A stretch of 64,000 nucleotides of DNA from an uncultured Actinomycetota bacterium. GTDB taxonomy: Bacteria > Actinomycetota > Actinomycetes > JACCUZ01. The translations under genes were made by a program, and so were the position numbers. Location: NCBI GenBank assembly GCA_963746175.1, contig CAVVAH010000008.1, positions 800,377-864,376 of the forward strand. The letters are read 5' to 3'. Of this stretch, positions 9,252-28,474 are shown piece by piece. Position 1 is the first letter of the stretch. Each line of letters begins with the position of its first letter. The notes beneath the pieces were generated by a model. That model was given only the letters and a program-made list of their open reading frames with translations. It made no database searches and was not told the origin of the DNA.

Positions 9252-9880
9252 AGCGTATGGCGGTCGCGGACCGTCAGCGGCCTGGGCTACGGTCCGTGCC
9301 GTGCTGGAGCCGACGTACCCGCTCAGGACCGAGCGCCTCGACCTGCGGCCCTACCGGGACGACGACGGCGACTTCCTCTACGAGCTGCAGAAGGACCCCG
9401 ACACGACCAAGTACCTCTACTACGAGCCGCTCACTCCTGAGCGGGTCGACGCCGCGCTCGGCCCGAAGCTCGCGCGGCACGTCCTGCGCGGCGAGGGCGA
9501 AGCCCTGCAGCTGGTCGCCGTTCTGCGGGCGACCGGCGAGCGGGTCGGCGAGGCCACGCTGGGCTGGCCGTCGGAGGAGCACCGTGGCGGCGAGGTCGGC
9601 TACCTCGTCCACCCGGCGCACCGCGGTCGGGGCTACGCCACCGAGATGGCGGCGGAGATGCTCCGGCTGGCCTTCGACGACTTCGGCTGGCACCGCGTCA
9701 TCGGCCGGCTGGACGCCCGCAACGCGGCGTCGGCCGCCGTGCTGGAGCGGCTGGGGATGCGCAGGGAGGCGACGTTCTGGTCAGCAACGAGTTCGTGAAG
9801 GGCGAGTGGGGCGACGAGGTCGTCTACGCGCTGCTGGAGGACGAGTGGCCGACGTCACGGGCCAGCCGGTCCAGCGCCTG
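9244..9880 (+). CDS. GNAT acetyltransferase (RimJ/RimL-like) with an apparent -1 frameshift near 9775
   Basis: The frame reads ...RREATFW then stops. The +1 frame continues VSNEFVKGEWGDEVVYALLEDEW, the typical RimJ C-terminus. A single missing g in tgggtc would restore it. Confidence 0.65.
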
Positions 9881-10698
9881 ACGGACCGCGCCCGGCGCCT
9901 CGTACCAGGGCAGGTGACCGGCTCCGGGCACGACCTCGGTCCACGCGCCCGGGGATGCGGTCGGCGCTGTCACGTCCGGCGCTGTTCGGGATGCTGCTCT
10001 GCTCACCCACGACCACGCCGAGCGGCACGGCGATCCCCGGCAGTGACGCCTCCAGCTCGGGCAGCCGCTGCACCAGGTCGGTGAACAGCCCGGAGTACGC
10101 CGGGATCGACAGCCGCATCGGCCGGGGCATCGGTGGCGCGGCGGGCGGGTCGGCGAAGTATGCGGGCCAGAACAGCCGGAAGCTCTCCAGGGCGAGCTCC
10201 TCCGACGTGTCGCCCTCCTGAGCCAACCGGTCCAGCTCGACGGCGCGCTCACGGTCCGCCTCCGGTGTGCGCCGCTCCATCTCGGCCTCGAACTCGGCGT
10301 TGCCGCCGTCGCCGACCGCACCGAGCGGGTCGACCGCGAGGACACCGAGCAGTCGCTCGGGCAGCCGGCCGGCCACCCAGAACGCGAGGTGACCACCCCA
10401 GGAGCTGCCCACGACGTACGCCCGGTCCCAGCCCAGGTGGTCGAGCACCGCGGCGACGTCGGCGACCGCCTCGTCGATGGTGAAGGAACCGTGGGTCAGC
10501 GACAGCTCGATGCCCCGCTGCTGGTAGGTGGCGACCCGGTACGACGGCGCCAGGTCGGCGACGAGGCCGTCGACGATCGACACCGAGATGCCGGGTCCGC
10601 CGTGCAGCACCAGCACCGGCGGCCCGTCCCCCGTGACGGTGCCGGCGAGCACGCCGCCCTCGACCGTTGCCGCGAAGTCGTCGTACCCAGCCGTCATG
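9824..10698 (-). CDS. alpha/beta hydrolase (proline iminopeptidase-like) with an apparent frameshift near 9905
   Basis: Starts MTAGYDDFAAT. Carries LHGGPGIS and the GSSWGG nucleophile elbow. The C-terminal AWTEVVPGAGHLPWYE is in another frame. Confidence 0.7.
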
Positions 10699-10720
10699 GT
10701 CGCGATCCTGGCACGATGCG

Positions 10721-11589
10721 GCCATGACGACGTCCCGCAGCGACGGTCACGTACGGCGTCCGCTCGATGTCCGCGCCGCTGCAGCGCGTCCTCACGGTCC
10801 GGCCGACGACGACCGGGGACTTCGCCGCGCCGGTTGGCGCCTCCCGGACCCGACGAGCTGCTCCGCGAGCACGAGGCCTTCGTCGAGCTGCTCGAGTCGC
10901 TCGGGGTCGAGGTCGTGGCGCGGCCGACGCCCCGGACGGGATGGTCGACGCCTGCTTCGCGTACGACCCGGTGCTCGTGACCGGTGCCGGGGCGATCGAG
11001 CTGCGGATGGCCAAGCCGGCCCGGCAGGACGAGCCGGGCTTCCTCGTCGCCGAGGTCGAGAAGGCCGGTGTCCCGGTGCTCGGCCGGCTCACCGGCCCCG
11101 CCACCGCCGACGGCGGCGACATGTTCTGGCTGGACGAGTCGACCCTCGCCGTCGGCCGCGGGTACCGCACCAACGCCGAGGCGCACCGCCAGCTGGCCGA
11201 GCTGCTCGCGGCCCGAGGGCGTGACGGTCGAGCGCGCCGACCTGCCGCACCACCGGGGCGCCGCGCACGTCATGCACCTGATGTCCGTCGTGTCCCCGGT
11301 CGCGCCGGACCTGGCCGTGGTCTTCGAGCCGCTCGCCCCCGTGCCGCTGCTCGAGCTGCTCGCCGACCGCGGCTACCGGACGTTGCCCGCCGACCCCGAC
11401 GAGCTCGACGACCAGGGCTGCAACGTGCTCGCAGTACGCCCCGGGGTGGTCGTCATGGCCGACAGCGCCCCGCGCACCCGGGCCACGCTGGAGAAGGCCG
11501 GGGTCGAGGTGCACACCTACGCGGCGTCACAGGTGAACAAGGGTGACGGCGGACCCACCTGCCTCACCCGACCGCTGCTGCGCGCGTAA
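10721..11589 (+). pseudogene. amidinotransferase-superfamily enzyme (DDAH / arginine deiminase-like) broken by at least 4 frameshifts
   Basis: Conserved segments sit in three frames: VTYGVRSMSAPLQRVLTVRP, DELLREHEAFVELLESLGVEVV, DAPDGMVDACFAYDPVLV...GGDMFWLDESTLAVGRGYRTN and VTVERADLPHH...GGPTCLTRPL (catalytic Cys). Confidence 0.6.
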
Positions 11590-11674
11590 CGCCCGGCGGC
11601 CTTGCCGGACAGCAGCAGAGCCGGCCGGAACACCAGCAGCTCCGAACCTGTTGGGAACGGCAACAGGAGGTCAC

Positions 11675-12367
11675 ATGTTCTTCGGCAGGAAGCCCGTCAT
11701 GGTCACCCGGCAGGACGCCCTCCCGGGCCGACCCGACCGTCCGTTCCGCATCGCCCCCGACCACGTCGTCCTCGGCACCCCGATCGAGGCGCCGGCCGCG
11801 CCCGGCCACGAGGAGATCTTCTTCGGCATGGGCTGCTTCTGGGGGTCCGAGCGGATCTTCTGGCAGATCCCCGGCGTCGACGTCACCGCGGTCGGCTACC
11901 AGGGCGGATACACCCCGAACCCGACGTACGAGGAGACGACGACCGGCCTCACCGGCCATGCCGAGGTCGTCCGGGTCGTCTACGACCCCTCGAAGGCCGA
12001 GCTCGAGACCTTGCTCAAGGCGTTCTGGGAGAACCACGATCCGACGACGCCGAACCAGCAGGGCAACGACGTCGGCACGACCTACCGCTCGGCGATCTAC
12101 ACGACCAGCGACGCGCAGCAGGCGGCTGCCGAGGAGTCACGGTCCCGCTACCAGCAGGCGCTCAAGGAGGCCGGGTTCGGCGAGATCTCGACCGAGATCA
12201 AGCCGGCGTCCGAGGCCGGCACGTTCTGGTACGCCGAGGACTACCACCAGGGCTACCTGCACAAGAACCCGCGCGGCTACTGCAACCACGGGTTCTGCCA
12301 GGTGGCGTACGACGCCAAGGCACACGGTCAGGACGCCCCCACCAAGGTCGAGCTCCCCGAGTCCTGA
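11675..12367 (+). CDS. msrA: peptide methionine sulfoxide reductase MsrA
   Basis: GMGCFWG active-site motif. SD aggagg 6 nt before the ATG. Confidence 0.9.
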   Translation: MFFGRKPVMVTRQDALPGRPDRPFRIAPDHVVLGTPIEAPAAPGHEEIFFGMGCFWGSERIFWQIPGVDVTAVGYQGGYTPNPTYEETTTGLTGHAEVVRVVYDPSKAELETLLKAFWENHDPTTPNQQGNDVGTTYRSAIYTTSDAQQAAAEESRSRYQQALKEAGFGEISTEIKPASEAGTFWYAEDYHQGYLHKNPRGYCNHGFCQVAYDAKAHGQDAPTKVELPES

Positions 12368-12602
12368 GGCGAGCCTGCCGTGCACGCACGGTGACGACGG
12401 CACACGCTGCGTCGACCCGTTGGTGGCGATGCCCGAACTGCCCGGATAACTCCAACGAATCGCGCGAGGTCGCGCGACCGGACGCCTTGTGGTGGCGCTG
12501 CGGGCGGGAGTACGAACGAGTGGGCTCACCACGGCCACCAACGGGGCGACCAACGGGGGTCCTGCGGCGACGTCATCGCCGCCCGTAGGAGGGGGACTGC
12601 CT

Positions 12603-14210
12603 GTGAGACGCATCGTTGCCCTGGGAGCGGTCGGCGCGCTGGCCGCCAGCTCGTTCCTGGTCACACCGTCGGTCGACGCCACCACCCAGGCCCGCGTCGA
12701 GAAGTCCACCATCTCCTGGGGCCGCTGCGACGACCCCTTCCTGCGCGAGCTCGGCGCACAGTGCTCCACGCTCGAGGTCCCCGTCGCCTACGCCCGCCCC
12801 GAGCTCGGCACGCTGACCCTGGCCCTTTCCCGGCTGCGGCACACGGCGCCGAGGAAGGACTACAAGGGCGTCCTGCTGGCCAACCCGGGCGGGCCGGGCG
12901 GCTCCGGCCTGACGCTGGCCCCCGTCCTGGCGGTGTTCGCGATGCCGGACGACATCCGCGCGGCGTACGACTGGATCGGCTTCGACCCGCGCGGCGTGGG
13001 CTCCAGCGAGCCCCGGCTGTCCTGCGACCCCGACTACTTCGTCGGCCCGCGTCCCGACTACGACATCGGGCTGACGCCCTCGGCCGAGAGCGAGTGGGTT
13101 GCCCGGTCGCAGGGCTACGCCGCCGACTGCGCGGCCGCTGGAGGCGAGCTGCTCAATCACCTGCGCACCACCGACAACGTCCGCGACATGAACCTGATCC
13201 GGGCCGCGCTGGGCGCACCGAAGCTGAACTTCTACGGCTTCTCCTACGGCACCTACCTAGCGCAGGTCTACGCCACGAAGTTCCCGCGGCGGGTCGGCCG
13301 GATGGTTCTCGACGCCAACGTCAACCCGACAAGGGTCTGGTACGACGCGAACATCGACCAGGACCACGCGTTCGAGATCGTGATCGGCAGGTTCTTCGCC
13401 TGGGTCGCCGACCACGACGACATCTACGACCTGGGCACGTCGGCCGCCGAGGTCGAGGCGGCCTACTACGACGCGCGGGCAAAGCTGACCGCGAACCCGG
13501 AGGGCCCGCTCGGCCCGTCCGAGCTGACCGACGCCTTCCTGCCGGCCGGCTACGTCCAGGTCCTCTGGCCGGACGAGGCACAGGCGCTCTCAGACCTGGT
13601 GCATGGCGACCCGTCCGGCGCGACCGCGTTCTACGAGGCTTTCGACGGCCCAGGTGACGACAACGGGTTCGCGATGTACCTCGCCACCGTCTGCACCGAC
13701 GGCCGGTGGAAGCCCTATCCCGCCTTCCGCGCCGAGAACGTCGCGGTCGACGAGCAGGCGCCGTTCTTCTCGTGGGGCAACTTCTGGTTCAACGCCCCGT
13801 GCGTCTACTGGGCCGGTCGGTCGCACCACCCGGTGAACGTCAACGGGAGCGCCGCGCCGCCGCTGCTGCTCATCGGCGAGACCCTCGACGCCGCGACTCC
13901 GCTGCCGGGCAGCTTCGAGGTGCGGCGGCGGTTCCCACGGTCGGCGTTGGTCGAGGTGGACGGCGGGACCACCCACGCGAACTCGCTGTCGGGAAACCCG
14001 TGCGTCGACGAGCCGATCTTCACCTACCTGCGCACCGGGGTCGTCCCGCCGCGGGTGGCGGGCGACGGCCCGGACGTCCTCTGCCCGGCCCCGCCGCTGC
14101 CCGAGCCGGCGACGGCGACGGCGTCCTCGACCTCGGGGGGAGGCAACCAGCGCCACGGGCTGACTCCGATGTGGTCCACGCAGCTCTCAGCCGGCTTCAG
14201 CCGGCCCTGA
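12603..14210 (+). CDS. secreted S33-family tripeptidyl aminopeptidase-like alpha/beta hydrolase
   Basis: GTG start after SD AGGAGGGGGA. Signal peptide. GFSYGT nucleophile motif. About 535 aa. Confidence 0.7.
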   Translation: MRRIVALGAVGALAASSFLVTPSVDATTQARVEKSTISWGRCDDPFLRELGAQCSTLEVPVAYARPELGTLTLALSRLRHTAPRKDYKGVLLANPGGPGGSGLTLAPVLAVFAMPDDIRAAYDWIGFDPRGVGSSEPRLSCDPDYFVGPRPDYDIGLTPSAESEWVARSQGYAADCAAAGGELLNHLRTTDNVRDMNLIRAALGAPKLNFYGFSYGTYLAQVYATKFPRRVGRMVLDANVNPTRVWYDANIDQDHAFEIVIGRFFAWVADHDDIYDLGTSAAEVEAAYYDARAKLTANPEGPLGPSELTDAFLPAGYVQVLWPDEAQALSDLVHGDPSGATAFYEAFDGPGDDNGFAMYLATVCTDGRWKPYPAFRAENVAVDEQAPFFSWGNFWFNAPCVYWAGRSHHPVNVNGSAAPPLLLIGETLDAATPLPGSFEVRRRFPRSALVEVDGGTTHANSLSGNPCVDEPIFTYLRTGVVPPRVAGDGPDVLCPAPPLPEPATATASSTSGGGNQRHGLTPMWSTQLSAGFSRP

Positions 14211-14216
14211 CCGCCG

Positions 14217-14278
14217 GTACGGAGCTGCATGATCACCGCGACTCTGCTCGTCGGTGATCATGCAGCTCCGTACCCGTC
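14217..14278. terminator. perfect 24-bp palindrome cggtacggagctgcatgatcaccg-N13-cggtgatcatgcagctccgtaccg between convergent genes
   Basis: Seen directly. The core tgatcacc...ggtgatcatgcagc recurs at 29553-29590. Confidence 0.6.
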
Positions 14279-15110
14279 AGCCGACCTCGGTGACGTCCTC
14301 GACGGTGAACTCCGGCGGGTGCGACTCCCGGGTGGCGTGGCAGGTGAGCAGACCCGGCTCCGGCCGGGCACCGGCCCGGACCGTGACGATGAGGTTCCGC
14401 GGCTGCCGCCGCAGCCGCACCTGGAACCTGCCGTCACCGAGGTGCAGCGTGCCGGCCGGTGCGAGCGAGTCGACCGCGAGGTCGCCGAGCTCGCGCCGGA
14501 CGTGCGCGACCGCGGCCTGCGCGGCCGGTGCCGTCGTCGACCGGCCGCGCAGCAGGTCGGGCAGCACCTCGCCGCGCTCGTGCGCGGCCACCAGCTCGGG
14601 CACCCGGTCGGTGCCGACCCGCCCGTAGTAGAGGCCGTGCGGCATCGCCACGACGTTCGCCGCGAACCGGTCGCCTCCGACGTGCGAGCACTCCCAGGCC
14701 GCACCGGGCCGGTGCCGCGCGAGCGCCAGCGCCACCGGCCGGCCCTCGACCGCGCAGCAGGCGTCGTGCCGGCCGTGGGTGCAGACCAGGTAGAACGGCT
14801 CGTACGACACCGTGCCGGCGCTGCCGTCGAGCGGCAGCGTCCGCAGCTCCTCGTCCGCGCCGAACGTGCCCCACGACGACACCTCGCGCCCGGGCCGGGA
14901 GCTGACGACCGCCCAGCTGCGCCGCTCCGGCACCGGCTGCCGGCCGGGCCGACGGATCAGCAGGACCCGCAGACCCTGCCGGATCGCGCGGCGGGACACC
15001 TCCAGCCCGACCGCTGTGTCGAGCCGGGACGACGTGAGCGCCTGGCGGCCCCAGCCACCGGGCTGCTCGACGAGCAGGTACCCCGCTGCGGGTGCGGCGG
15101 TGCCGGCCAT
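14277..15110 (-). CDS. sucrase/ferredoxin-like (thioredoxin-like [2Fe-2S] ferredoxin family) protein
   Basis: CTHGRHDACCA cysteine motif characteristic of the Suc_Fer-like family. 277 aa, counted from the stop. Confidence 0.65.
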   Translation of the reverse strand: MAGTAAPAAGYLLVEQPGGWGRQALTSSRLDTAVGLEVSRRAIRQGLRVLLIRRPGRQPVPERRSWAVVSSRPGREVSSWGTFGADEELRTLPLDGSAGTVSYEPFYLVCTHGRHDACCAVEGRPVALALARHRPGAAWECSHVGGDRFAANVVAMPHGLYYGRVGTDRVPELVAAHERGEVLPDLLRGRSTTAPAAQAAVAHVRRELGDLAVDSLAPAGTLHLGDGRFQVRLRRQPRNLIVTVRAGARPEPGLLTCHATRESHPPEFTVEDVTEVG

Positions 15111-15169
15111 CGGGTCGCCGCGGAGGCGGGCAGCGACCGCGCACCGGGGCGCAGCGACGACCGGCTCGC

Positions 15170-16429
15170 TCAACGCTCCTCGACCAGCACGACGGCCTCG
15201 CGCACCAGGCGCCGGGCGAGCACCATGGCGTCGCCCGGGTCGAGGCCCGGCAGGTCCGCCACCCGCAGCGACTCGCCGTCGAGCAGCGAGCGGACGGCCT
15301 TCGCCGTCGCCGCGGGCAGCCGCAGCGTCCGGTCGTGCAGCCGCAGCACGATCTCGTCGCCGTCCATGGCCAGCGTGTGCCGGAGGTGGCGGCGGGCGCG
15401 GAGCACCGACTCGGCCGCGAGCGTCGACAGTGCCGCGGCCTGTGCCAACGGCGCGACCGGCTCCGGCCGGTTGCTGCCGACGAGCGAGCCACCCAGCCGC
15501 TCGGACACCTGGGCGGCGGTGACCGCCGGCAGCCGGTCCAGGAGCACGGCGAGGGTGGCCTCCACGTCGGCCTGCACCGCAGCGGGGTCGCCGAGGTCGA
15601 CACCCATCGGCAGCGACGTCCGCAGCGCCGGGTCGTCGGCCACCAGGTCGAGCAGCGCCTCGAGCACGTGGTGCCGGGTGACAGGGTGGACGCCGACGGT
15701 CAGGTGGCACGAGACGTCGCCGAGCGCCTCGGCGGCGTGCAGGTAGCCTCGCGGCAGGTAGAGGGCGTCGCCCGGCCGCAGCACGGTGTCGACGACCGGC
15801 TCCTCCGCGGCGCGCGCCTCGACCGCGGCGCGGCGCTGCTCCCACGGCTGGTCGCGCAGCGGCGCCGGCAGCACCGGTTCGTGGATCCGCCAGCGCTTCT
15901 CGCCCGCGACCTGCAGGACGAAGACGTCGTGCACGTCGTAGTGCGCCGAGAAGCCCTGTGACGAGCTCGGCGTGACGTAGGCGTTGACCTGCACCGGGTG
16001 GCCCAGCTCGGTCGCCAGCTCGCCGGCGAAGTCGGTGATCGGACCCCAGGTGCGGTGCAGACCCTGGAAGACGACGGTGTGCCCGTCGGCGAAGAGCTCC
16101 AGGACCCGGTCATCGGCCACCTGGTCGGCGACCTGCGCGCCGGTGCCGCCACCGCGGGTGTAGCGCGCGGCCGGCGTGACGACACCGTCCTTGGCGATCC
16201 GCAGGAACGGCGTACGCAGGCCGCGCCGCGACAGCAGCTCGTCGACGGCGGCCAGCGAGAAGAGGTCGTCGAAGCCGGCCGGTCCGTCGCCCGCCAGCTG
16301 CTCGCGCGTCGAGAGCAGCGGCTGCCGTGACCAGACGCGCGCGGCGAAGTCGTCGCGGTCGACGGCCGCGCAGCGCCGCAGGGCGGGCCAGGAGATGGAG
16401 TCTCCCGGCCCGCCCGCGGTGTCGCTCAT
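15170..16429 (-). CDS. JmjC / cupin-4 family Fe(II)-2OG oxygenase (ribosomal oxygenase RoxA/YcfD-like)
   Basis: HYDVHDVFVLQVAGEKRWRIH (HxD...H facial triad region). Start at MSDTAGG. The long upstream ORF extension overlaps a repeat and was rejected. Confidence 0.65.
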   Translation of the reverse strand: MSDTAGGPGDSISWPALRRCAAVDRDDFAARVWSRQPLLSTREQLAGDGPAGFDDLFSLAAVDELLSRRGLRTPFLRIAKDGVVTPAARYTRGGGTGAQVADQVADDRVLELFADGHTVVFQGLHRTWGPITDFAGELATELGHPVQVNAYVTPSSSQGFSAHYDVHDVFVLQVAGEKRWRIHEPVLPAPLRDQPWEQRRAAVEARAAEEPVVDTVLRPGDALYLPRGYLHAAEALGDVSCHLTVGVHPVTRHHVLEALLDLVADDPALRTSLPMGVDLGDPAAVQADVEATLAVLLDRLPAVTAAQVSERLGGSLVGSNRPEPVAPLAQAAALSTLAAESVLRARRHLRHTLAMDGDEIVLRLHDRTLRLPAATAKAVRSLLDGESLRVADLPGLDPGDAMVLARRLVREAVVLVEER

Positions 16430-16448
16430 GGTGCTCAGAGCAGGGACC

Positions 16449-16694
16449 TCAGGCGCCGCTGTCCGCGCCGCCGTCGCCACCACCGTCAGCGGCCCCGTCG
16501 GCACCGCCGTCGTGCTCACCGGGCGTGCCGGACGCGCCGCCGTCGGCCGGACCTTCGGCACCGCCGTCCGCGCCGCCGTCCGCGCCACCGTCGGCTCCGC
16601 CGTCCGCACCGCCGTCGCCGCCGCTGCCGGCTCCGCCGTCCGCGGGCCCGTGCTCCTGCGGGCTTGTGGTCATGTCGTCGTCGTCGAGCGCCAT
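16449..16694 (-). CDS. small (81 aa) acidic intrinsically disordered (DGGA)n-repeat protein
   Basis: Perfect SD GAGGGAGGA 5 nt before the ATG. Sequence MALDDDDMTTSPQEHGPADGG(A/S)G...(DGGA)x5... The stop lies 19 nt before the cupin start. The DNA is a tandem 12-nt repeat. Confidence 0.5.
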   Translation of the reverse strand: MALDDDDMTTSPQEHGPADGGAGSGGDGGADGGADGGADGGADGGAEGPADGGASGTPGEHDGGADGAADGGGDGGADSGA

Positions 16695-16797
16695 ACGTGT
16701 CCTCCCTCTCGGTCGAACTCCGGCGCCCGCTGTCCGGGGCGCCCGTCCCCGTCCTACCCGACGCGGGAAGCGGAAACCAGCGGCAGTCCGCCTCGCC

Positions 16798-18243
16798 TCA
16801 GCCGGCGGCGAGGTGCCCGAGCAGGTCCTGCCGGGTCAGGACACCGGCCGGCTTGCCGTCCTCGTGCACGAGCACCGCGTCGGACTTCGCGAGCGCAGCC
16901 GTCGCCGCCGACACCGGCTCCCCCGAGCCGACGATCGGCAGCGGCGCCGACATGTGCCGCTCCAGCGCGTCGGCGAGGTGCGCGTCACCGGAGAACAGCA
17001 GGTCGAGCAGCTCCTTCTCGCTGACCGAGCCGACGACCTCCCCCGCCGTCACCGGGGGCTCGGCCTTGACGACCGGCATCTGCGACACGCTGTACTCACG
17101 GAGGATGTCGATGGCCTCGCGGACCGTCTCGTACGGGTGCACGTGCACGAGCGTGGGCACCTCGGCGCCCTTGCTGGCGAGCACGTCGCCGACGGTGGTG
17201 CCCGAGGTGGAGTCGGCGTCGAGGAAGCCGTAGTCGGCCATCCAGTCGTCGTTGAAGATCTTGCCGAGGTAGCCGCGGCCGCTGTCCGGCAGCAGCACCA
17301 CCACCACGTCGTCCGCGGTGAGCCGTTCCGCGACCCGCAGCGCGGCGACGACCGCCATGCCGCAGGAGCCGCCGACGAGCAGACCCTCCTCGCGGGCCAG
17401 CCGCCGGGTCATGTGGAAGGAGTCGCGGTCGGACACGGCCACGATCTCGTCGGTCACGGTCCGGTCGTACGCCGACGGCCAGAAGTCCTCGCCGACTCCC
17501 TCGACGAGGTACGGCCGGCCGGTGCCGCCGGAGTAGACCGAGCCCTCCGGGTCGGCACCGACGATCTGCACCTTCCCGTCGCTGACCTCCTTGAGGTAGC
17601 GGCCGGTGCCACTGATGGTGCCGCCGGTGCCGACGCCGGTGACGAAGTGCGTGACGCGACCGTCGGTCTGCGTCCAGATCTCCGGCCCGGTCGTCTCGTA
17701 GTGCGACCGCGGGTTGTTCGGGTTGGAGTACTGGTCCGGCTTCCAGGCGCCGTCGATCTCGCGCACCAGCCGGTCGCTGACCGAGTAGTACGACCGCGGG
17801 TCCTCCGGCGACACGGCCGTGGGGCACACCTCGACGCGGGCGCCGTACGCCGTGAGCACGTTGATCTTGTCCTGGCTCACCTTGTCGGGCAGCACGAAGA
17901 CGCACTGGTAGCCGCGCTGCTGCGCGACCAGCGCGAGCCCGACGCCGGTGTTGCCGGAGGTCGGCTCGACGATGGTGCCGCCGGGCCGGAGCTCGCCGGA
18001 CTCCTCGGCGGCGTCGACCATCCGCACGGCGATCCGGTCCTTCACGGACCCGCCCGGGTTGAGGTACTCGACCTTCGCGAGCACGGTCGCCGGGACGTCC
18101 CGGGCGACGGACTTCAGCCTGACCAGCGGGGTGTTGCCGACCAGGTCGACCATGGACTCGTAGACCTGCATGGGCATGAGCGTAGAGCGCGGCTCGTGAC
18201 TCGCTCTCGAACGGGGAGCGTCGTGTGGCGCCCGATCCGTCAA
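16798..18243 (-). CDS. cbs: cystathionine beta-synthase (PLP cysteine-synthase fold plus tandem CBS domains)
   Basis: PLP-lysine motif SVKDR, GNTG, GTGGT, and C-terminal CBS pair. Alternative start at MPMQVY (18177). Confidence 0.85.
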   Translation of the reverse strand: MTDRAPHDAPRSRASHEPRSTLMPMQVYESMVDLVGNTPLVRLKSVARDVPATVLAKVEYLNPGGSVKDRIAVRMVDAAEESGELRPGGTIVEPTSGNTGVGLALVAQQRGYQCVFVLPDKVSQDKINVLTAYGARVEVCPTAVSPEDPRSYYSVSDRLVREIDGAWKPDQYSNPNNPRSHYETTGPEIWTQTDGRVTHFVTGVGTGGTISGTGRYLKEVSDGKVQIVGADPEGSVYSGGTGRPYLVEGVGEDFWPSAYDRTVTDEIVAVSDRDSFHMTRRLAREEGLLVGGSCGMAVVAALRVAERLTADDVVVVLLPDSGRGYLGKIFNDDWMADYGFLDADSTSGTTVGDVLASKGAEVPTLVHVHPYETVREAIDILREYSVSQMPVVKAEPPVTAGEVVGSVSEKELLDLLFSGDAHLADALERHMSAPLPIVGSGEPVSAATAALAKSDAVLVHEDGKPAGVLTRQDLLGHLAAG

Positions 18244-20790: not shown

Positions 20791-20797
20791 GGTACCG

Positions 20798-21349
20798 CTA
20801 GAGCCGGCGGCGCAGGTCGGCGAGCAGCCTCGCGGCGAGCTCGATCCGCTCCCGCGCCGGCAGCCCGTCGTCCTGCCCCATCGGCACGACCGTCTGGGGG
20901 TCGACCAGGTGCATGGCCGCGAGCAGGTCGTTCCCGCCGACGGCGACCTGGTCGCCGGCGGCGAAGACGTTCAGCTCGGGCATCCCCCGGGGGCCGGGGT
21001 AGGGCCGTCCCTCCGCTGCCGCCTCGAACGCGACGGCCAGGTCCGACAGCCAGCTCCCCATCGCCTGACCGGCCTGCGCCCGGGTGCCCCAGTGCGGCAG
21101 CTGCTCTTCGCCGGGTGCCACCTGGCCGTCCAGGCGGGCGTGCGACATCGAACGCAGCCGGTCGGCCACCCGCCCGACGTCGGCGGCCAGCTCGGAGCGC
21201 AGCGGCTCCCAGCTGTCCACGTCGTGGTCCGGCACGCGCGTGACCCTAACCGGGGGTTGTGGCGAGCCCGGTCGTGAGGCAGTCTCGACCCCATGGTTCG
21301 CTGAGTCCCCCACTGGAGGCGCCGATGTCCCTGCACCACTCCGAGGCAA
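20798..21349 (-). CDS. hypothetical protein
   Basis: ORF with no recognised motif. The true start may be an internal GTG near 21241. Confidence 0.35.
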   Translation of the reverse strand: MPRSGAGTSAPPVGDSANHGVETASRPGSPQPPVRVTRVPDHDVDSWEPLRSELAADVGRVADRLRSMSHARLDGQVAPGEEQLPHWGTRAQAGQAMGSWLSDLAVAFEAAAEGRPYPGPRGMPELNVFAAGDQVAVGGNDLLAAMHLVDPQTVVPMGQDDGLPARERIELAARLLADLRRRL

Positions 21350-21555
21350 CCCACCAGCAGCTGATCGAGCGGGTGCCGCAGGTCACCGGACGCGACCTGC
21401 CCCAGTGGTTCGAGACCCTCGAGAACGGGCCCGGCCTCCTCCGCTTCGACGAGCGGGTCAACTGGCTGCGCGACGAGCACGGCATCTCGCACGGCCACGC
21501 CTCGGCGATCGTGCACGAGCACGACCTCCGGCGCGGGGCGCGGCGCCACTCCTGA
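21325..21555 (+). CDS. DUF4287 domain protein
   Basis: MSLHHSEATHQQLIERVPQVTGRDLPQWFETLE...ERVNWLRDEHGISHGHASAIV matches the DUF4287 consensus. SD ggagg before the ATG. Confidence 0.6.
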   Translation: MSLHHSEATHQQLIERVPQVTGRDLPQWFETLENGPGLLRFDERVNWLRDEHGISHGHASAIVHEHDLRRGARRHS

Positions 21556-21962
21556 CGGCCGACGAGGCGCGCGCCTTCGTCCGCGCCCACCACCTGGCTG
21601 TGCTCGCGACCTTCCGCCGCGACGGCCGGCCGCAGCTCTCGCCGGTCACGGCGGGCGTCGACGACGACGGCCGGATCGAGATCTCGACCCGCGAGCCGTC
21701 GATGAAGGTCAAGAACCTGCGCCGCGACCCGAGGGTCTCCCTCTGCCTGCTCAACCGGTCGTTCTTCGGCGAGTGGGGACAGGTCGAGGGCACCGCCGAG
21801 ATCGTCGAGCGACCGGCCGCGCTACCGCTGCTCGTCGACTACTACCGCCGGATCTCCGGCGAGCACCCGGACTGGGACGACTACCGCGCCGCCATGGAGC
21901 GCGAGCAGCGGGTGCTGGTCCGCTTCGAGATCGAGCGCGCCGGACCGACCGTCGAAGGTTGA
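21556..21962 (+). CDS. PPOX-class (pyridoxamine 5'-phosphate oxidase-like, probable F420-dependent) protein
   Basis: EARAFVRAHHLAVLATFRRDGRPQLSPV N-terminal signature. No canonical start, so it may be fused to DUF4287 by a frameshift. Confidence 0.55.
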
Positions 21963-22074
21963 CGAGTGCGTCCCGCCCGCCGGTGACCCGCCGTCGTGGT
22001 GGCGGTCAGAGCGCCAGGACCAGGACGTTGCGCCGTTGCTCCCACGGCGCCGTCGGTGCCTGTCCACCGTCCGC

Positions 22075-22230
22075 AAATGATCGTTTGCGACCTGGTTCAC
22101 CGGACACGCCGTGCCGAGCCCGGCGTGTCGGGGACCGACGTCGCAAACGATCACTCGCGGGGTGGAACGGTAGGCCGGCTCGCGGACGGCGGGCCGCCAC
22201 CTCCCGCCTCCGCCGTCCTGGCCGCTCTGA
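22075..22230 (+). repeat. intergenic palindromic repeat element, copy 2 of the gatcg..tgcgac subfamily, with the conserved gcggacggcg...cctccc tail
   Basis: gatcgtttgcgac-ctggttcaccggacacgcc-gtgccgagcccggc-gtgtcggggaccgac-gtcgcaaacgatc, then cggctcgcggacggcgggccgccacctcccgcctcc. Confidence 0.55.
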
Positions 22231-22329
22231 CGCGAGCAAGCGACGGCGGGACAGGTCGCCAGCCGACCCAGAACGCAGGACGGGCCGCACCCCGAGGGGT
22301 GCGGCCCGGCCGTGCGTCTTGGTCTGGGA

Positions 22330-23130
22330 CTAGTCGCCGCGCAGGATCGCGATCAGGCGCAGCATCTCGATGTACAGCCACACCAGCGTGACGACGAGGC
22401 CGAAGGCCGCGAGCCAGGCGTAGCGCTCGGGGATGCCGTTCTTGACGCCCTGGTCGGCGAAGTCGAAGTCCAGGATGAGCATCGCGGCAGCCAGGCCGAC
22501 CGCGAACAACCCGATCAAGAAGCCGAACGGACCCTGTCGGAGACCGAAGTCGCCACCGCCACCGAAGAGCATCACCACGAGATTGACCAGGCAGAAGACC
22601 AGGTAGCCGCCCATCCCGATGAGGACGGTGCGGCGGAACTTCGGGGTGGCCCGGACCTTGCCGCTCTTGTACGCCGCGAGTGCCACGGCGAACACCGCCA
22701 GGGTGCCGATGACGGCCTGGGCGACGACGCCCGGCCAGCGGTTCTCGAACGCCTGGCTGATGCCGCCGATGAAGAGGCCCTCGGCGGCGGCGTAGCCGAT
22801 GATGAGTGCGGGGCTGGTCGACTGCTTGAACGAGACGACGAGACCGAGCACCAGCCCGGCGATCGCACCGCCGATCGTGAGCAGCGGGCTGGCGAGCCAC
22901 CAGTTCACGGCGGCGGCCGGCACCAGCACCGCGAAGAGGATGCCGGTCCTGATGACGACGTCGTCCATCGTCATGCGGCCGGTGTCGACCCCGCTGGCGG
23001 GCGGCGCGTTGTACATGTCCTCGAGCTGGCCGGCGGTCGCGGTGGGCACGGCCGACTGCTCGTTGAACGTGGCGTACCCCTTCTGCGAGAACGCCTTGCT
23101 GTTGTTGAAGACCGGGTTGCGGCTCTCCAT
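22330..23130 (-). CDS. Bax inhibitor-1 / YccA (TMBIM) family membrane protein
   Basis: 266 aa, seven hydrophobic helices. N-terminal NPVFNN...KGY typical of the BI-1/YccA family. Confidence 0.75.
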   Translation of the reverse strand: MESRNPVFNNSKAFSQKGYATFNEQSAVPTATAGQLEDMYNAPPASGVDTGRMTMDDVVIRTGILFAVLVPAAAVNWWLASPLLTIGGAIAGLVLGLVVSFKQSTSPALIIGYAAAEGLFIGGISQAFENRWPGVVAQAVIGTLAVFAVALAAYKSGKVRATPKFRRTVLIGMGGYLVFCLVNLVVMLFGGGGDFGLRQGPFGFLIGLFAVGLAAAMLILDFDFADQGVKNGIPERYAWLAAFGLVVTLVWLYIEMLRLIAILRGD

Positions 23131-23230
23131 GACACTCCTCCGTGGGGTGCCCGCGGGAAGTCGCGGGACAGGATCCTGCCCAGAGTAACGACAAGGGCGG
23201 ATCCCGCGTTCCCCGAACGGGTGACGAACG

Positions 23231-23305
23231 TGCCCCCGGTGGGACTCGAACCCACACTGGACCCGCTTTTAAGGCGAGCGCCTCGACCAATTGGGCTACA
23301 GGGGC
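23231..23305 (-). tRNA. tRNA gene, class I (short variable loop), apparent anticodon UAA (would read UUA Leu), discriminator A
   Basis: Minus-strand sequence GCCCCTGTAGCCCAATTGGTCGAGGCGCTCGCCTTAAAAGCGGGTCCAGTGTGGGTTCGAGTCCCACCGGGGGCA. 7-bp acceptor stem, GGTTCGAGTCC T-loop, anticodon stem CTCGC/GCGGG with loop CTTAAAA. No CCA encoded. Confidence 0.8.
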
Positions 23306-23379
23306 GGCTGCGGCTCGCCCACCCGCTCTCGACGAGTGAGCGTGTCGAGGCGGACGCGTAGCGTTCTCGCGAGCGAACG

Positions 23380-23918
23380 AAACGACGGATGCATCGGCGG
23401 CGCGAGCGGCGGGGTGCAGGGCATCCGCCGGCCCGGTCGAGGAACAGCAGCCCGTCGAGGTGGTCGATCTCGTGCTGCAGGGCGCGGGCCTCGAAGCCGT
23501 CGGTCTCGATCTCGACCTCGGCGCCGGTCCCTGGCACCACCGCCAGGACCACCAGCCGGGTGGCTCGCTTGACGTCACCGGTGAGGTCGGGCACCGACAG
23601 ACAGCCCTCCCGGCCGCGCTCCCAGCGGCTCGCCGACGCCACCGCCGGGTTCGCCAGCACCAGCGCGCCGTGGCAGGCCTTGGTCCGCGGGTGATCGGAG
23701 ACGTCCAACGAGAGCACCCGGAGGGGCACCCCGACCTGCGGCGCTGCGAGCCCTACGCAGCCGGCCGCGGAACGCTGCGTCGCCAGCAGGTCGGCAGCCA
23801 GCGCCAGGACGTCCGGGTCGAGCGGGTCGACCTCCTCCGCTCGCGAGGACAGCACCCTCGCGGGCGCCAGCACCGACTGCCGCACCCGCCCGACAGGAAG
23901 GGGCGGGAGCAGGCTCAC
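23380..23918 (-). CDS. def: peptide deformylase (C-terminus uncertain; no in-frame stop before the tRNA)
   Basis: GLAAPQVG, EGCLSVP and QHEIDHLDG motifs. The ORF runs on without a stop to 22971, through the tRNA, so a frameshift or lost stop is inferred. Confidence 0.75.
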
Positions 23919-24433
23919 AGCACGTCGGGGTCGAGGACCCGCAGGGAGACGTCCACGCCGAGGTCGCTGCCGACCGCCGCGAGGTCCCGGCTCAGCTCCT
24001 CCGGGTCGACCGCTCCCGGCAGGTCGACCTCGGCGAGCAGGACGTAGAGGTCGCCCGAGAGCCGGGTCGACAGGTCGGTGACGTTGCCGCCGGCCTCCGC
24101 GACCAGCCCCGTGACGGTCGCGACGATCCCGGGCCGGTCGGCCCCGTGCACCGAGAGGAGGTACGTCGAGCCGAGCGCCGTCGCGGGGTCCTCGTACGGG
24201 ATCTCCCGCACCGACACCTGCAGCGTGCCGTCGGCGGAGAGCGAGCGCAGCGCGTCCTCGGCCTCGGCCGGCGTGACCTCGGCATGGGCGACCACCACCA
24301 TCGCGAAGTGACCCCGCAGGATGGTCATCGTCGAGTCCTCGAGGTTCGCCCCGAGCTCCGCGAGCACTCCGGTCGTCTCGGCGATGATGCCCGGCCGGTC
24401 ATGGCCGAGGACGGTGACCGCGAGCAGCGTCAC
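23915..24433 (-). CDS. tandem ACT-domain protein (GcvR-like regulator)
   Basis: Two VxVxGxDRPGIVA ACT signatures: VTVLGHDRPGIIAETTGVLA and LSVHGADRPGIVATVTGLVA. GTG start. Stop overlaps the def start. Confidence 0.65.
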   Translation of the reverse strand: MTLLAVTVLGHDRPGIIAETTGVLAELGANLEDSTMTILRGHFAMVVVAHAEVTPAEAEDALRSLSADGTLQVSVREIPYEDPATALGSTYLLSVHGADRPGIVATVTGLVAEAGGNVTDLSTRLSGDLYVLLAEVDLPGAVDPEELSRDLAAVGSDLGVDVSLRVLDPDVL

Positions 24434-25765
24434 CGGCTTGCCTCGCTGAACTCCTCGCGGGGTCGCTGCAGCGACCCGAGCGACACCACGTCCCGGCGGA
24501 AGAAGAGCGCCAGCGTCCAGTCGAGGACGACCCGGACCTTGCGGTTGAACGTCGGGACCCGGCTCACGTGGTAGGTCCGGTGCATGAACCAGGCCGGGAA
24601 GCCGCGCAGCTTGACGCCGTAGACCTGCGCGACCCCCTTGTGCAGGCCGAGCGAGGCCACCGACCCCACGTGCTTGTGCGCGTAGGCCCGCGGGTCGCGG
24701 CCGTTGAGCACCAGGGCGATGTTGTCGCCGAGGACCTTGGCCTGGCGTACGGCGTGCTGCGCGCTCGGGCTGGTCGCGGACTCCCGGGCCGGCCGTCAGG
24801 TCGGGGACCGACGCGCCGTCCCCGGCCGACCAGGCACCGTCGACGTCCTCCACCCGCAGGTCCGGCCGGCAGCGCAGCCGGCCCTTGTCGTCGAGCGGCA
24901 GGCCGGTCCTCGCGAGCACCGGGTTGGCCCTGACGCCGGCGGTCCAGACGATCGTGTCGGCGTCGAACGCCGTGCCGTCGGACAGCACGACGTGGCCGTC
25001 GACGCACGACTCGAGCCGGGTGTCCAGCCGGACGTCGATCTTGCGCTTCACCAGCTCGCGGACCGTGTACCGCCCGAGGTCCTCCCCGACCTCCGGGAGG
25101 ATCCGGCCGGTGGCCTCGACGAGCACGAAGCGGATGTCGCCCTTGGACAGCTCCGGGTAGTAGCGGGTCGCGTAGGTGGTCATGTCCTCCAGCTCGGCCA
25201 GCGCCTCGATCCCGGCGTAGCCACCACCGACGAACACGAACGTGAGCAGCTTGCGGCGCTCGGCGTGGTCGGTGACGCTCGTCGCGATGTCGAGCTTCTC
25301 GAGGACCTGGTTGCGCAGCGCGATGGCCTCCTCGACCTGCTTGAACCCGATGCCCTGCTCGGCCAGCCCCGGGATCGGCAGGGTGCGCGCGATGGACCCG
25401 GGCGCCAGCACCACCACCTCGTAGGACAGCTCGTACGCGTCCCCTCGGGGAGGCTGGATCACCGCGACCCGGCGCTCGTGGTCGAGCGAGACGAACCGGC
25501 CGGTGAGGACCTCGCACTTGTCGAGGACGCGGCGCAGCGGGACGACGACGTGCCGCGGCTCGACGCTGCCGGCAGCCGCCTCGGGCAGGAACGGCTGGTA
25601 GGTCATGTACGACCGGGGGTCGACGACGATGACCTCGACCCGCTTCGCCTTGATCTCGGACCGGAGCCGGCGCTGCAGCCGCAGTGCGGTGTACATCCCG
25701 ACGTAGCCGCCACCGACGATCAGGATGCGGGTCCGTCCGGGTGAGGCAGCGGGCGTGATCGCCAT
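24430..25765 (-). CDS. ndh: type II NADH dehydrogenase (NDH-2) with an apparent frameshift near 24790
   Basis: ILIVGGGYVGMYTA Rossmann motif, a second FVGGGYAG. The C-terminus (NGRDPRAYAHKH...WFMHRTYH) lies in a different frame (ORF 24430-24711). Confidence 0.7.
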
Positions 25766-25767
25766 GA

Positions 25768-26564
25768 TCAGACTGTATTCCGCAGCCCCGCGACGGTGGC
25801 CGCCCGGTCCAGGACCTGGTCGAGCATCTCCTCGGTCAGCCGGCCGGTGAAGGTGTTCTGCTGGCTCGGGTGGAACGAGCCGACAACGGTCACGGCACCG
25901 ATGACCGCCTCCGCGCCGTGACCGAAGCGCGGTCGTGGGCGGGGCTCTCCAGGCCGAGCCTGGACAGGCAGCCCGAACGTCGCCTGCCAGGCGAAGGCAC
26001 CGAGGGCGACGACGACCCGCAGCTGCGGCAGCAGCAGCGCGACCTCGGCGTCCATCCACGGCGCGCAGGTGTCCCGCTCGGCGGGCGTGGGCGCGTTGGC
26101 CGGCGGCGCGCAGCGCACCGGCGCCAGCATCCGCGTGCCGATCAGCCGCTGCCCGTCGCCGGCGCGCGTGCTGGTCGGCCGGGCGGCCAGCCCGACCCGG
26201 TGCAGCGCCGCGAACAACCAGTCGCCGCTGCGGTCACCGGTGAAGATCCGGCCGGTCCGGTTGCCGCCGTGGGCGGCCGGCGCGAGGCCGACCACGAGCG
26301 ACGGCGCCGCGGGTCGCCCCAGCCCGCGATCGGCCGACCCCAGTACTGCTCGGCGTCGAACGACCTCCGCCGGTCGACGGCGACCTGCTCGCGCCACTGC
26401 ACGAGCCGTGGGCAGGCACGGCACACCGAGACGGCTGCGTCGAGCTCGGGCAGCGTGACCGCGGCGCGCGGCCAGCCGGCGTACGTCGTCGGGCGACGAC
26501 GCGACCGGGGTGCGCCCGTCGGCGGGGTCGTCCGGCCACCCGGTGCCCGGCGGCACCGGACCAC
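25768..26564 (-). CDS. uracil-DNA glycosylase, family 4/5 (UdgB-like, GLAPA motif) with an apparent frameshift near 26290
   Basis: CRACPRL Fe-S motif in one frame. [26 protein letters not shown] and GAFAW...HPS motifs in another. Confidence 0.6.
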
Positions 26565-26573
26565 GCACCCCGC

Positions 26574-27278
26574 TCAGAGGCGGCTGCGGAGCAGGTCGAC
26601 CGTGCGGCGCCATGCAGCGTCCGAGTGCTCCTTGTCGTGGACCTCGGGACGGGTGTCGTTGAAGAACGCGTGCGACGACCCGGGGTAGTCGTAGACCTCG
26701 ACGTCTCCGCCGGCCTTCTCGATGCCGCGGACCGCGGCCTGGACGCCGTCGGCCTTGGAGGTGCCGTCCTCCTCGGAGGCGTGGATCATCGCGCTCTTGT
26801 TCGTGTAGTTGCCCCACGTCGGCGACATCGCGTCCCACGGCAGCGCGGGGTAGAAGCCGACCGCGACCTTGATCTCCTCGTCGATGGCGCCGCTCCAGAG
26901 CGCGAGCGAGCCACCCATGCAGAACCCGACCGCCCCCACACCGGTGCCCTCGGTCTCGGACCGCTCGGCGAGGTAGCGCGCCGCGCCCTGGATGTCCTTG
27001 GCGGCGCGGTCCATCTCCATCGACATGAGCAGCCGCTGCGCGTCGTCGGGCTCGGCGGTCTGCTGGCCGTGGAAGAAGTCAGGCGCCAGGGCCACGAAGC
27101 CGGCTTCGGCGAAGCGGTCGCTGACGTCCTTGATGTGGTCGACGAGGCCCCACCACTCCTGGACGACGATCACTCCGGGGTGCGCTCCGTCGGCGTCGGG
27201 CACGGCGAGGTAGGCCTCGCAGCTGTCGCCGTTGCTGGGGAAGCTGACCATCTCGCCCACGGGCGGGACCTCTTTCAC
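26574..27278 (-). CDS. dienelactone hydrolase family protein
   Basis: GVIVVQEWWGL and GAVGFCMGGSLA nucleophile elbow, and the HAF motif. Alternative start at MVSFP (27251). Confidence 0.75.
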   Translation of the reverse strand: MKEVPPVGEMVSFPSNGDSCEAYLAVPDADGAHPGVIVVQEWWGLVDHIKDVSDRFAEAGFVALAPDFFHGQQTAEPDDAQRLLMSMEMDRAAKDIQGAARYLAERSETEGTGVGAVGFCMGGSLALWSGAIDEEIKVAVGFYPALPWDAMSPTWGNYTNKSAMIHASEEDGTSKADGVQAAVRGIEKAGGDVEVYDYPGSSHAFFNDTRPEVHDKEHSDAAWRRTVDLLRSRL

Positions 27279-27479
27279 GCTCGGCGTGCGGCGCCGCGGT
27301 GGCGCCAGGTGCTGGCGTGGAGGACCTTTCCACTCCGGGGCCGCGCTACGCCAGGGTCCCCCGACCGATTCCCGTCACCGTTTCCGCGGTCGGGCTCGGG
27401 CTCGCGGTGCGGTGACGGCGCTGGCTCCAGGGGTGGGCGTGACCAGCGACCAGCGGCGGCGCGTCGACCGACGGGCCGG

Positions 27480-28347
27480 CGTCGGGTCCTGACGGTGCGT
27501 CGGACTCGACGTACGGTAGGGGAAGGCGTTGTCGATCACGCGGCCCTGGCTGTCGAAGACCGGCCGCGGGTGCACGTCCGGTGACAGGTCGAGCGAGAGC
27601 GGCGCGCCGTCTGGTCGTACAGGCGGACGTCGTGGAGCAGTGGCCCTGAGGCGTCGTAGGCGTACAGGTTCCACACCTGGTGCCGCGGCGTAGACGCCCT
27701 CGGGCGGCACCAGGTGTCGCTGGTGAGGAGTACAGCGCACCTTCCTGGATGTACACGACGTTGTTCGCCTGGTCGACGCAGGAGGGGCGAGCACGGGGAC
27801 GGCGGCCAGGGCCGCCACCAGGATAGAGGGCGAGCACGGCGCGACGCGGCAGCGGTCCATGCCCCGGCGGCCGAGCTGCACCGAGGCCCACACGGCGACG
27901 ACGAGGAGGAGCAGGCCCACCTCGGGCGACACGACCCGCGGCACGAAGGGCAGGTTGCCGGACCAGGTCCGGCGTGCTCTGGCCGGGCCACATCGCCACG
28001 AGCCCGACGAGGACCCAGGCGCGGGCCAGCCACCAGACCGGCCGCAACGAGGTGAGGTACGCCTGCGCCGCCGCGACCCGGCGGCCGCCGGCCGCAGCGC
28101 CAGCCGGGCCACGAGGCGTCCGCCGGCGCGACCCCGTGCCGCACCGGCGGCAGCCCGGCCGACGCGAGCTCGCGGCGACTGGTGGCGGCGAGCCGGGTCG
28201 CGAGCGGCGCGTCGCTCTCGGCGGCCAGCTCGTCGAGGTCGTCGCGAGCTCGTCGAGCAGGTCGGCGCGGTCCTCGACAGGCAGGTCGGCCAGCCGGGCC
28301 GCGACGCCGTCGAGGTAGTCCTGCGATTCACGACTGCGGGTCATCAT
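27480..28347 (-). pseudogene. membrane protein with a DUF1700-like N-terminus, fragmented across three frames
   Basis: MMTRSRESQDYLDGVAARLADLPVEDRADLLDEL, then TM segments (LRPVWWLARAWVLVGLVAMW; GLLLLVVAVWASVQL) and a conserved-looking VWNLYAYDASGPLLHDVRLYDQ stretch, spread over different frames. Confidence 0.35.
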
Positions 28348-28474
28348 GCTGGTCCCCGTGCCCGGTCCCGTGCTCATCGTCGCCCCTCTGCGTGCGTCGC
28401 GCCGGCCAGCAGGCCGCCCATGGTGTCGGCGAAGGCCAACCAGGAGGCGCATCGCCGACTGAAACGTTCGGCAG

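Follow-up and report, generated by a model that had tools for sequence, protein, structure and literature searches.

The window, that is, the whole 64,000-nucleotide stretch of DNA that was analysed, has the composition of an actinobacterium (73% GC), and it comes from an uncultured soil actinobacterium of high GC content. Several of its genes are spread over more than one reading frame: a RimJ-like GNAT acetyltransferase, an α/β hydrolase, a DDAH-like amidinotransferase, a peptide deformylase (def), a type-2 NADH dehydrogenase (NDH-2), a uracil-DNA glycosylase family gene (UDG), a HAAS-domain membrane protein, a lipoprotein, ppc and wzz. The original prediction had listed apparent frameshifts in these genes and at two other places. 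Most were confirmed and more were added, while DUF4287/PPOX and the start of a GH16 gene proved to contain no frameshift.

Events were detected by frameshift-aware alignment to intact homologues together with nucleotide alignment to other assemblies. The closest relatives of the window are Microflora Danica Nanopore metagenome-assembled genomes (MAGs). The same-species comparison set comprised assemblies L164, L167, L081 and L168-L171, from four ENA samples, whose aligned bases match those of the window at about 98.2-99.4%; the public assemblies of the species other than the window are Flye-style 'contig_N' records. A second set (L082, L083, L165 and L166) consisted of more distant MEGAHIT/JGI-style, that is, short-read-style, contigs. 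The nearest GTDB relative, L001, was unsuitable as a sole reference because it is itself frameshifted in the gene at window positions 8115-9347, in the GNAT gene and in the DDAH gene. Mapping blastx coverage in all frames gave no information, as every frame finds matches in syntenic high-GC DNA. Three-way parsimony, used alone, wrongly labelled some indels common to L164 and L167 as private to the window. By homology the window is intact at these sites, which suggests miscalls in both assemblies, shared or systematic. Since some sites, such as 28239 and 49834-49840, are miscalled in several assemblies, the agreement of two such assemblies is no proof of correctness.

The first cluster of events begins in the GNAT gene (PF13302; 9300 to 9882, plus strand, ends approximate), recognised by Pfam and by frameshift-aware alignment to L001 and L083. 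A break had been placed near 9775, and alignment with L164 and L167 resolves it as two extra nucleotides at 9779-9781 (+2 at 9780), leaving the final ~30 conserved residues in another frame; both assemblies agree against the window and carry a 192-aa gene. The α/β hydrolase (PF00561; 9823 to 10697, minus strand, ends approximate), identified from translations and from L164 and L167, had rightly been held to be frameshifted, although the single extra G (+1) lies at 9947 and not at about 9905. It leaves the C-terminal catalytic-His motif (VVPGAGHLPWYE) in another frame, whereas in L164 and L167 the gene lacks the extra G and is whole, at 290 aa. The hydrolase gene is missing from L001, L004 and L083. 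The DDAH-like gene (PF02274/PF19420; 10724 to 11589, plus strand) had been credited with at least four events and contains five frame-breaking indels: +1 at 10745, -1 at 10828, -1 at 10849, +2 at 10917-10921 and +1 at 11212. At these sites, L164, L167, L082 and L083 have one and the same reading, which differs from that of the window. After correction, the protein has 96-97% identity to intact 287-aa proteins and, at 0.37, a nonsynonymous/synonymous ratio of codon changes like that of intact neighbours. In addition, substitution divergence within this indel cluster is the lowest of the neighbourhood (4.5% versus 6.5-8.3% in the flanks).

The clustering that had been noticed is real. Between positions 736 and 21461, all indels shown to break the frame of the window fall within 9780-11212, so that 8 events occupy 1.43 kb out of 20.7 kb, with a probability of about 6e-8 by n(w/L)^(n-1). 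No supported frame-breaking indel was found between 11.3 and 23.3 kb. Both clusters of the window lie at or adjoin structurally variable segments: for the first this is the α/β hydrolase insertion (9.8-10.7 kb), for the second the PadR–HAAS locus (27.3-28.5 kb).

An indel-rich stretch is seen at 20.8-21.3 kb. The frameshift proposed near 21550 in DUF4287/PPOX was rejected, as the region is an ordinary junction of two genes, with an upstream in-frame stop 4 nt from the GC3 phase switch. The DUF4287 gene (21313 to 21555, plus strand) occurs as a separate ORF of 76-84 aa in L001, L002, L004 and L165. In L008, L004 and L165, the homologues of the PNPOx-like gene that abuts or overlaps it (PF01243; 21516 to 21962, plus strand) are 136-147 aa long and match in a single frame.

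Frame-breaking changes resume in def (23387 to 23918, minus strand), whose catalytic domain is intact and whose 3′ end, already under suspicion, is corrupted at 23387-23429. Compared with L081, the window lacks 5+46+14+24+16 nt, of which the 5 and 46 nt, stop codon included, are missing at 23387-23429 and the further gaps reach 23317; in L165 and L166 the product has 176 aa. Because the stop codon is lost, the ORF (22971 to 23918) reads on through a tRNA-Leu(UAA) gene (23230 to 23305, minus strand), which was found by ARAGORN and is conserved in L001, L002 and L004. In NDH-2 (24430 to 25765, minus strand), the event expected at about 24790 is one extra G (+1) at 24775, which L081, L168 and L165 do not have. 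Homologue alignments give 93% identity on either side of it, and the corrected protein is 99.8% identical to the intact 444-aa protein P0001, with a nonsynonymous/synonymous ratio of 0.13, like intact neighbours. The UDG gene (PF03167; 25768 to 26615, minus strand, ends approximate), predicted as UdgB with a single break near 26290, is indeed broken, at four sites rather than one. These form two compensating pairs, +1 at 26469 with -1 at 26311 and +1 at 25975 with -1 at 25942, of which the former shifts the conserved CRACPRL segment into a wrong frame but introduces no stop codon. Here too, L081, L168 and L165 are unanimous against the window; where the gene is intact its product has 266-281 aa, and the ratio (0.63) is like that of intact neighbours.

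The broken membrane protein reported at 27.5-28.3 kb is a HAAS-domain protein (PF22564; 27365 to 28376, minus strand) with about 12 frame changes from 28239 to 27435, called against an 85%-identical reference, so that their number and positions are approximate. The change at 28239 was verified against L081, and the others are alignment estimates (~28144, 28100, 27969, 27866, 27822, 27785, 27711, 27680, 27613, 27515 and 27435). Next to this gene lies a PadR remnant (28377 to 28445, minus strand), which retains only the final 22 codons and lacks the first ~90 as well as the promoter region. The truncated junction is common to the window and L168, while PadR is intact, with 112 aa, in L165 and L166. 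The 800-nt core of HAAS (27393-28192) is deleted between short direct repeats in L081 and L168 and has no same-species witness; the whole PadR–HAAS locus is absent from L001 and L002. A search for a near-identical intact HAAS protein found none, the best matches being 70-72% identical. Compared with L165, HAAS has 72% nucleotide identity and a nonsynonymous/synonymous ratio of 2.0, in a family whose orthologues are themselves only 70-74% identical; because of this, the 66-72% of the window's copy need not be an excess divergence.

Further along, the three predicted events were found. In the SurA-N-like lipoprotein gene (38623 to 39256, minus strand), an extra G (+1) at ~39211 parts the n-region of the signal peptide (MSRLTRTAAAIAVAT) from its LAGC lipobox. 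The phosphoenolpyruvate carboxylase gene, ppc (43315 to 46066, plus strand), has one extra nucleotide (+1) at 44188 and is whole in L168, L169 and L170, where it encodes 916 aa. The Wzz-domain chain-length determinant gene, wzz (49343 to 51000, plus strand), lacks one nucleotide at ~49834-49840, where four assemblies show four different lengths; a Pfam search with its second frame gave no match. The possible event at the GH16 start was rejected, since the 279-aa product called in L171 has exactly the sequence of the window protein, whose frame also stays open upstream. A second GH16 gene shows a phase anomaly at 55095-55420.

Comparison with close relatives, which had been recommended as a check, returned intact genes at every covered site of the window. 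The window's indel is absent from the same-species assemblies at 9780, 9947, 10745, 10828, 10849, 10917-21 and 11212, and likewise from those covering 24775, 25942, 25975, 26311, 26469, 28239, ~39211 and 44188. The more distant L082, L083, L165 and L166 side with them against the window, their genes being intact. None of the single-base frameshifts of the window is reproduced in other assemblies at covered sites, and the only lesions shared between assemblies are the truncated PadR of the window and L168 and the 800-nt deletion in the HAAS gene of L081 and L168. The comparison assemblies are in fact noisier than the window, at different places. Between the window and L164 there are 90 indels whose length is not a multiple of three, 55 of which break the coding phase of L164 and about 10 that of the window. 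Private changes amount to 65 indels versus 152 substitutions in L164 and 96 versus 286 in L167; in both, more than 90% of the private indels shift the frame of coding sequence, and they occur in patches. These assemblies have split copies of CBS, thiolase, metB, ppc, NDH-2 and def, although the first three are whole in the window, as had been stated. Moreover, some events are small complexes of an indel and an adjacent substitution, and at certain sites three or four assemblies each have their own length. This is the behaviour of a miscalled consensus.

Nearly all the frameshifts are thus very probably indel errors of the consensus (assembly or polishing) in a noisy long-read metagenome contig, because other same-species assemblies are intact at those spots. 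The window itself would appear to come from noisy long-read sequencing. Errors would gather in patches of poorly supported consensus, likely through low local coverage, the collapse of strains that occur together or an assembly path that follows a minor structural variant, and such patches would account for the two clusters. [quoted passage not shown] Residual indel errors of Nanopore-only metagenome assemblies and MAGs (PMC12313526; see also PMC9262707) resemble the events described here, which are single-base indels that split conserved genes, are absent from other same-species assemblies and are patchy, with some contigs worse than others. Nevertheless, the short-homopolymer signature of the original prediction did not hold. 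At the sites of the first cluster and at 24775, 25942, 25975, 26311, 26469, 28239 and 44188, run lengths are of 1-3 bases, except for one run of 4 (25942), and no association of indels with homopolymers was found at the sites checked. Long homopolymers are the classical error context of Nanopore and 454 sequencing; they are typical, yet not defining, for low-coverage consensus error. Unlike classical Nanopore error, then, all but one of the checked sites are in runs of 1-3 bases, some with an adjacent substitution, and this position outside long homopolymers would count against consensus error. At the PadR–HAAS locus, the divergence of HAAS from L165, its ratio of 2.0 and the truncation of PadR in two assemblies would do the same.

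These last observations also belong to the case for real frameshifts, that is, for a strain with many recent pseudogenes in which accessory genes decay along with some core genes. As in genuine bacterial pseudogenes, ORFs are broken, some of them beside variable or accessory DNA, and the PadR–HAAS lesions are shared. Together with the patchy presence of the hydrolase, these shared lesions mean that both clusters touch genuinely variable DNA, and the absence of the PadR–HAAS locus and of the hydrolase from some relatives fits this picture. Nevertheless, strains ~99% identical to the window lack its indels at every covered site, and the affected genes include essential or core ones (ppc, NDH-2, def and UDG). 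Corrected genes are under purifying selection, as indicated by the ratios of DDAH, NDH-2 and UDG, none of which shows relaxed selection, and they carry no excess substitutions; for HAAS, the mutual distance of the orthologues may explain the apparent excess. In addition, the same damage occurs elsewhere in the comparison assemblies (for instance, in CBS, thiolase and ppc), and it cannot all be real. Widespread pseudogene formation is therefore unlikely. Between sequencing error and decaying accessory genes, both of which had been put forward, error is favoured because of the intact same-species assemblies, the purifying selection and the core genes involved.

The frameshifts might also have been misread, as adjacent or overlapping genes and open frames in 73% GC DNA, with its many spurious long ORFs in all frames, can mimic one gene that switches frame. 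This holds for DUF4287/PNPOx and the GH16 start. Elsewhere, alignments with single intact homologues run colinearly through the frame change with 85-100% identity on both sides, and the exact extra or missing bases are visible in nucleotide alignments. On these alignments, misreading is refuted for most sites, and as a general account it is very improbable. Programmed recoding, in which ribosomal frameshifting or transcriptional slippage would restore the proteins, has nothing specific in its favour beyond the compensation within the two UDG pairs. Against it, relatives that include ~99% identical strains have one continuous ORF for each of these proteins, the sites lack both conservation and slippery runs (runs are of 1-3 bases), no conserved slippery motif shared with relatives was seen at these positions, and a single gene can carry as many as 5-12 events. 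Its probability is negligible.

Consensus error is the favoured reading for the loci, with one possible exception. Among the affected loci, genuine decay is possible at PadR–HAAS only, because the truncation and the 800-nt deletion are shared between assemblies. That this module is genuinely dying in the soil actinobacterial population, with some of the ~12 HAAS frameshifts being real, is a tentative suggestion with the odds clearly against it. The full-length HAAS allele may also be a minor variant in its own sample, which would account for this being the noisiest stretch of the window.

The frameshifts are, in conclusion, very probably patchy consensus error and not a biological feature, with PadR–HAAS as the possible exception, and their significance is for annotation rather than biology. 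Wrong gene calls are to be expected: ppc, NDH-2 and DDAH truncated or split, UDG with an out-of-frame stretch of 52 residues, and def as an ORF running through a tRNA gene. The listed sites can be corrected by homology or re-polishing. Indel noise in patches affects the long-read assemblies publicly available for this species, and counts of pseudogenes and inferences of missing pathways made from this contig would be inflated.

Nearly all apparent frameshifts in the window are very probably patchy consensus errors of a long-read metagenome assembly. The window's DNA is GC-rich (68-76% GC along its full length), with an actinobacterial gene set that includes mfd, eno, ppc, CBS, thiolase, def and NDH-2. 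Since all six frames are open in such DNA, three independent tests were used: a GC3 phase plot with a seven-state Viterbi segmentation, a measure of how far each same-strand phase switch lies from the stop codon of the upstream frame, and a frameshift-tolerant protein-to-DNA aligner, written for this analysis and run against intact homologues. The stop-to-switch distance is ~20-40 nt or less at ordinary gene junctions and 136-843 nt at the suspect sites 11207, 24760, 26302, 27955, 28078, 44190 and 49840. Homologue alignment places breaks at ~9778 in the RimJ-like GNAT gene, at four to five sites in the DDAH-like gene, at ~24778 in NDH-2, at ~26466 and ~26310 in UDG (plus a short compensated pair, ~25974/25949), at about 12 sites in the HAAS-domain membrane protein, and at 44188 in ppc. 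In the α/β hydrolase, the catalytic-His segment (VVPGAGHLPWYE) lies in another frame than the remainder of the protein. In total, about 26 frame-disrupting events fall in 9.7-28.4 kb and three more outside it, so the predicted clustering in conserved genes is largely borne out and is denser than claimed; none is supported in 11.3-23.3 kb.

Two of the predicted frameshifts disappear. All relatives have DUF4287 and PNPOx as two distinct genes, and the stop lies 4 nt from the phase switch. The G-run near 54330, listed as a possible disruption of the GH16 start, is upstream of the gene; the GH16 protein is identical to a 279-aa one called in a sister assembly, and its frame is still open on the upstream side. 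A second GH16 gene (CBM_4_9 plus GH16; 54367-55989, minus strand) is a 540-aa ORF where GC3 phase prefers another frame in the linker (55095-55420), and two overlapping ORFs are called there in L169-L171, loci of same-species assemblies. This anomaly could reflect a low-complexity linker or a compensated indel pair.

In a CBS-protein scan of species-representative genomes, no genome identical to the window was found; the nearest loci belong to three MAGs of uncultured Actinomycetota with names of the form "MFD…bin" (L001, L002, L004), with CBS identity of 84-90%. L001 and L002 show ~81% nucleotide identity and synteny with the window over w6.8 to w27.3 kb (w, window position). The MFD long-read MAGs rest on Nanopore data only; assembly was by Flye (meta, nano-hq), one Medaka round served for polishing, and the authors tested them for Nanopore-associated errors at low coverage (PMC12313526). 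L001, the nearest GTDB species representative, is not clean as a reference because it too has frameshifts, in a 410-aa gene, GNAT and DDAH (equivalents of w8232, w8852, ~w9540 and ~w11080). Searching with the frameshift-corrected NDH-2 found a same-species contig, L081 (ENA ERZ25039516, contig_77064). Three others, from other ENA samples, were reached via members of the DDAH-match cluster and exact look-ups of the window's enolase and a 143-aa cytidylyltransferase: contig_3986 (3.77 Mb; L164, L171), contig_13518 (409 kb; L167, L169) and contig_23914 (108 kb; L168, L170), together spanning w0.7-21.5 kb and w23.3-55.3 kb. More distant are contigs with short-read-style names, namely L082 (k141, 93% identical), L083, L165 (JGI) and L166 (about 85% identical). 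In this set all genes are whole: GNAT, DDAH (285-287 aa), PadR (112), HAAS (337), DLH, UDG (266), NDH-2 (444), ACT (172), def (176) and BaxI (268).

The proposed comparison with close relatives gave a uniform answer: in nucleotide alignments, same-species and distant sequences are unanimous against the window at every window site covered. The corrected NDH-2 differs by one residue from an intact 444-aa protein encoded on L081 (P0001), and single-base differences in L081 coincide with the inferred sites 26469, 26311, 25975, 25942, 24775 and 28239. Over w21888-27392, L081 shows 49 mismatches, but 18 indel events; it has damage of its own, with def broken at w23600 and DLH shortened at w27240.

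DDAH, NDH-2, UDG and def show no signature of decay. Against L082, the DDAH indel cluster has 4.5% substitutions, below its flanks (6.5-8.3%). For DDAH, the nonsynonymous/synonymous ratio of codon changes is 0.37, within or below that of intact neighbours (0.56-0.85); five independent indels in 470 nt without relaxed selection are unlike a pseudogene. Ratios against L165 are 0.13 for NDH-2, 0.63 for UDG and 0.77 for def, with intact genes at 0.15 to 0.88. Some window indels adjoin a private substitution (CAGCGACGGTCACG vs CAGCAAC-GCCACG; TTCTGGTCAGC vs TTCCG--CAGC), which a local miscall fits better than separate mutations. Thus, of the original prediction's choice between error and decay, error stands, on intact relatives and the lack of a decay signature. 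The homopolymers invoked for it were the wrong reason, as runs are only 1-3 bases long (4 at 25942) at the sites of cluster 1 (9780-11212) and seven further frame-breaking sites.

Decay is more plausible at the PadR–HAAS locus (27393-28192 and 28445-28511; L081:240-260; L168:16120-16640). Only the last 22 codons of PadR remain in the window, with an identical junction in L168, and an 800-nt deletion within HAAS, bounded by short direct repeats (GACCCGG / GACCGCGG), is common to L081 and L168, which come from different samples; the L081 contig ends exactly at w28445. Such structural lesions, shared between assemblies, genuinely belong to the species, so the operon is probably no longer functional. 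The full-length HAAS copy of the window changes frame about 12 times; its nucleotide identity to L165 is 72%, and the nonsynonymous/synonymous ratio is 2.0, although the codon comparison is unreliable around so many gaps. Nevertheless, identity among HAAS orthologues is itself only 70-74%, so the 66-72% identity of the window's corrected protein to them is no excess divergence. That some of the HAAS frameshifts are real is possible, though less likely than not.

At the def 3′ end, the catalytic domain is whole, and 5 and 46 nt are missing relative to L081 at 23429/23412, the 46 nt including the stop codon (…TACCTCTGA); more gaps continue to 23317. The resulting stop-less ORF of 315 codons, certainly not a real protein, runs through tRNA-Leu(UAA) (23230-23305, minus strand), which lies between def and a BaxI-like gene and is kept in L001, L002 and L004. 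This tRNA decodes the rare TTA codon. As the intergenic stretch differs in length among relatives, these deletions may be either error or real.

Indel noise is heavier in the other assemblies than in the window and falls elsewhere. Window and L164 differ by 93 indels in 20.8 kb; of the 90 whose length is not divisible by three, 55 disrupt the coding phase of L164 and about 10 that of the window, eight of the latter in 9780-11212. A three-way comparison gives L164 65 private indels vs 152 private substitutions and L167 96 vs 286, with >90% of these indels out of frame within coding sequence. Indels form blocks in each assembly (w9.7-11.2 kb in the window, w14.2-17.2 kb in L164, w3.7-6.7 and w18.7-21.7 kb in L167), with surplus private substitutions in the same blocks. 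CBS, thiolase, metB, ppc, NDH-2 and def are in pieces in gene calls of other assemblies; they cannot all be broken in a living cell. Three assemblies show three states at w28239, and four show four at w49834-49840; the window state at two wzz hot spots combined with the L170 state at a third gives a single ORF of ~553 aa.

Miscalls at the same site, some differing in length, occur in several independent long-read assemblies at ~28239, ~49617, ~49640, 49834-49840, 14730, 14993, 17987, 18099 and 18107, which suggests error hot spots depending on sequence or base modification. Extra bases in CBS and JmjC are common to L164 and L167, and the window is whole there. At ~39250-39260 of the window, the stop of mfd and the start of the lipoprotein gene overlap (ATGA); L168 lacks one C (L168:5390-5400), which fuses both into a 1409-aa ORF, and ORFs of 1410 and 1409 aa in L169 and L170 are possibly the same fusion. 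The stretches 20800-21320 (minus strand) and 21890-22310, without a Pfam match or non-coding, carry many 1-5 nt indels relative to L164, L167 and L081.

The frameshift clusters are very probably not a biological feature. Both lie at or beside structurally variable DNA: the α/β hydrolase (9823-10697) occurs in the window, L164, L167 and L082 but not in L001, L004 or L083, and w27.3-28.5 kb is missing from L001 and L002, its 800-nt core being deleted in L081 and L168. A remnant of the hydrolase 3′ end (w9859-9895) is retained in L001. Perhaps the contig path ran through a minority variant or collapsed strains, which would leave little read support and hence poor polishing; the block-like noise of L164 and L167 lends support to such a regional cause. 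The value of the result lies in a list of sites needing correction before annotation.
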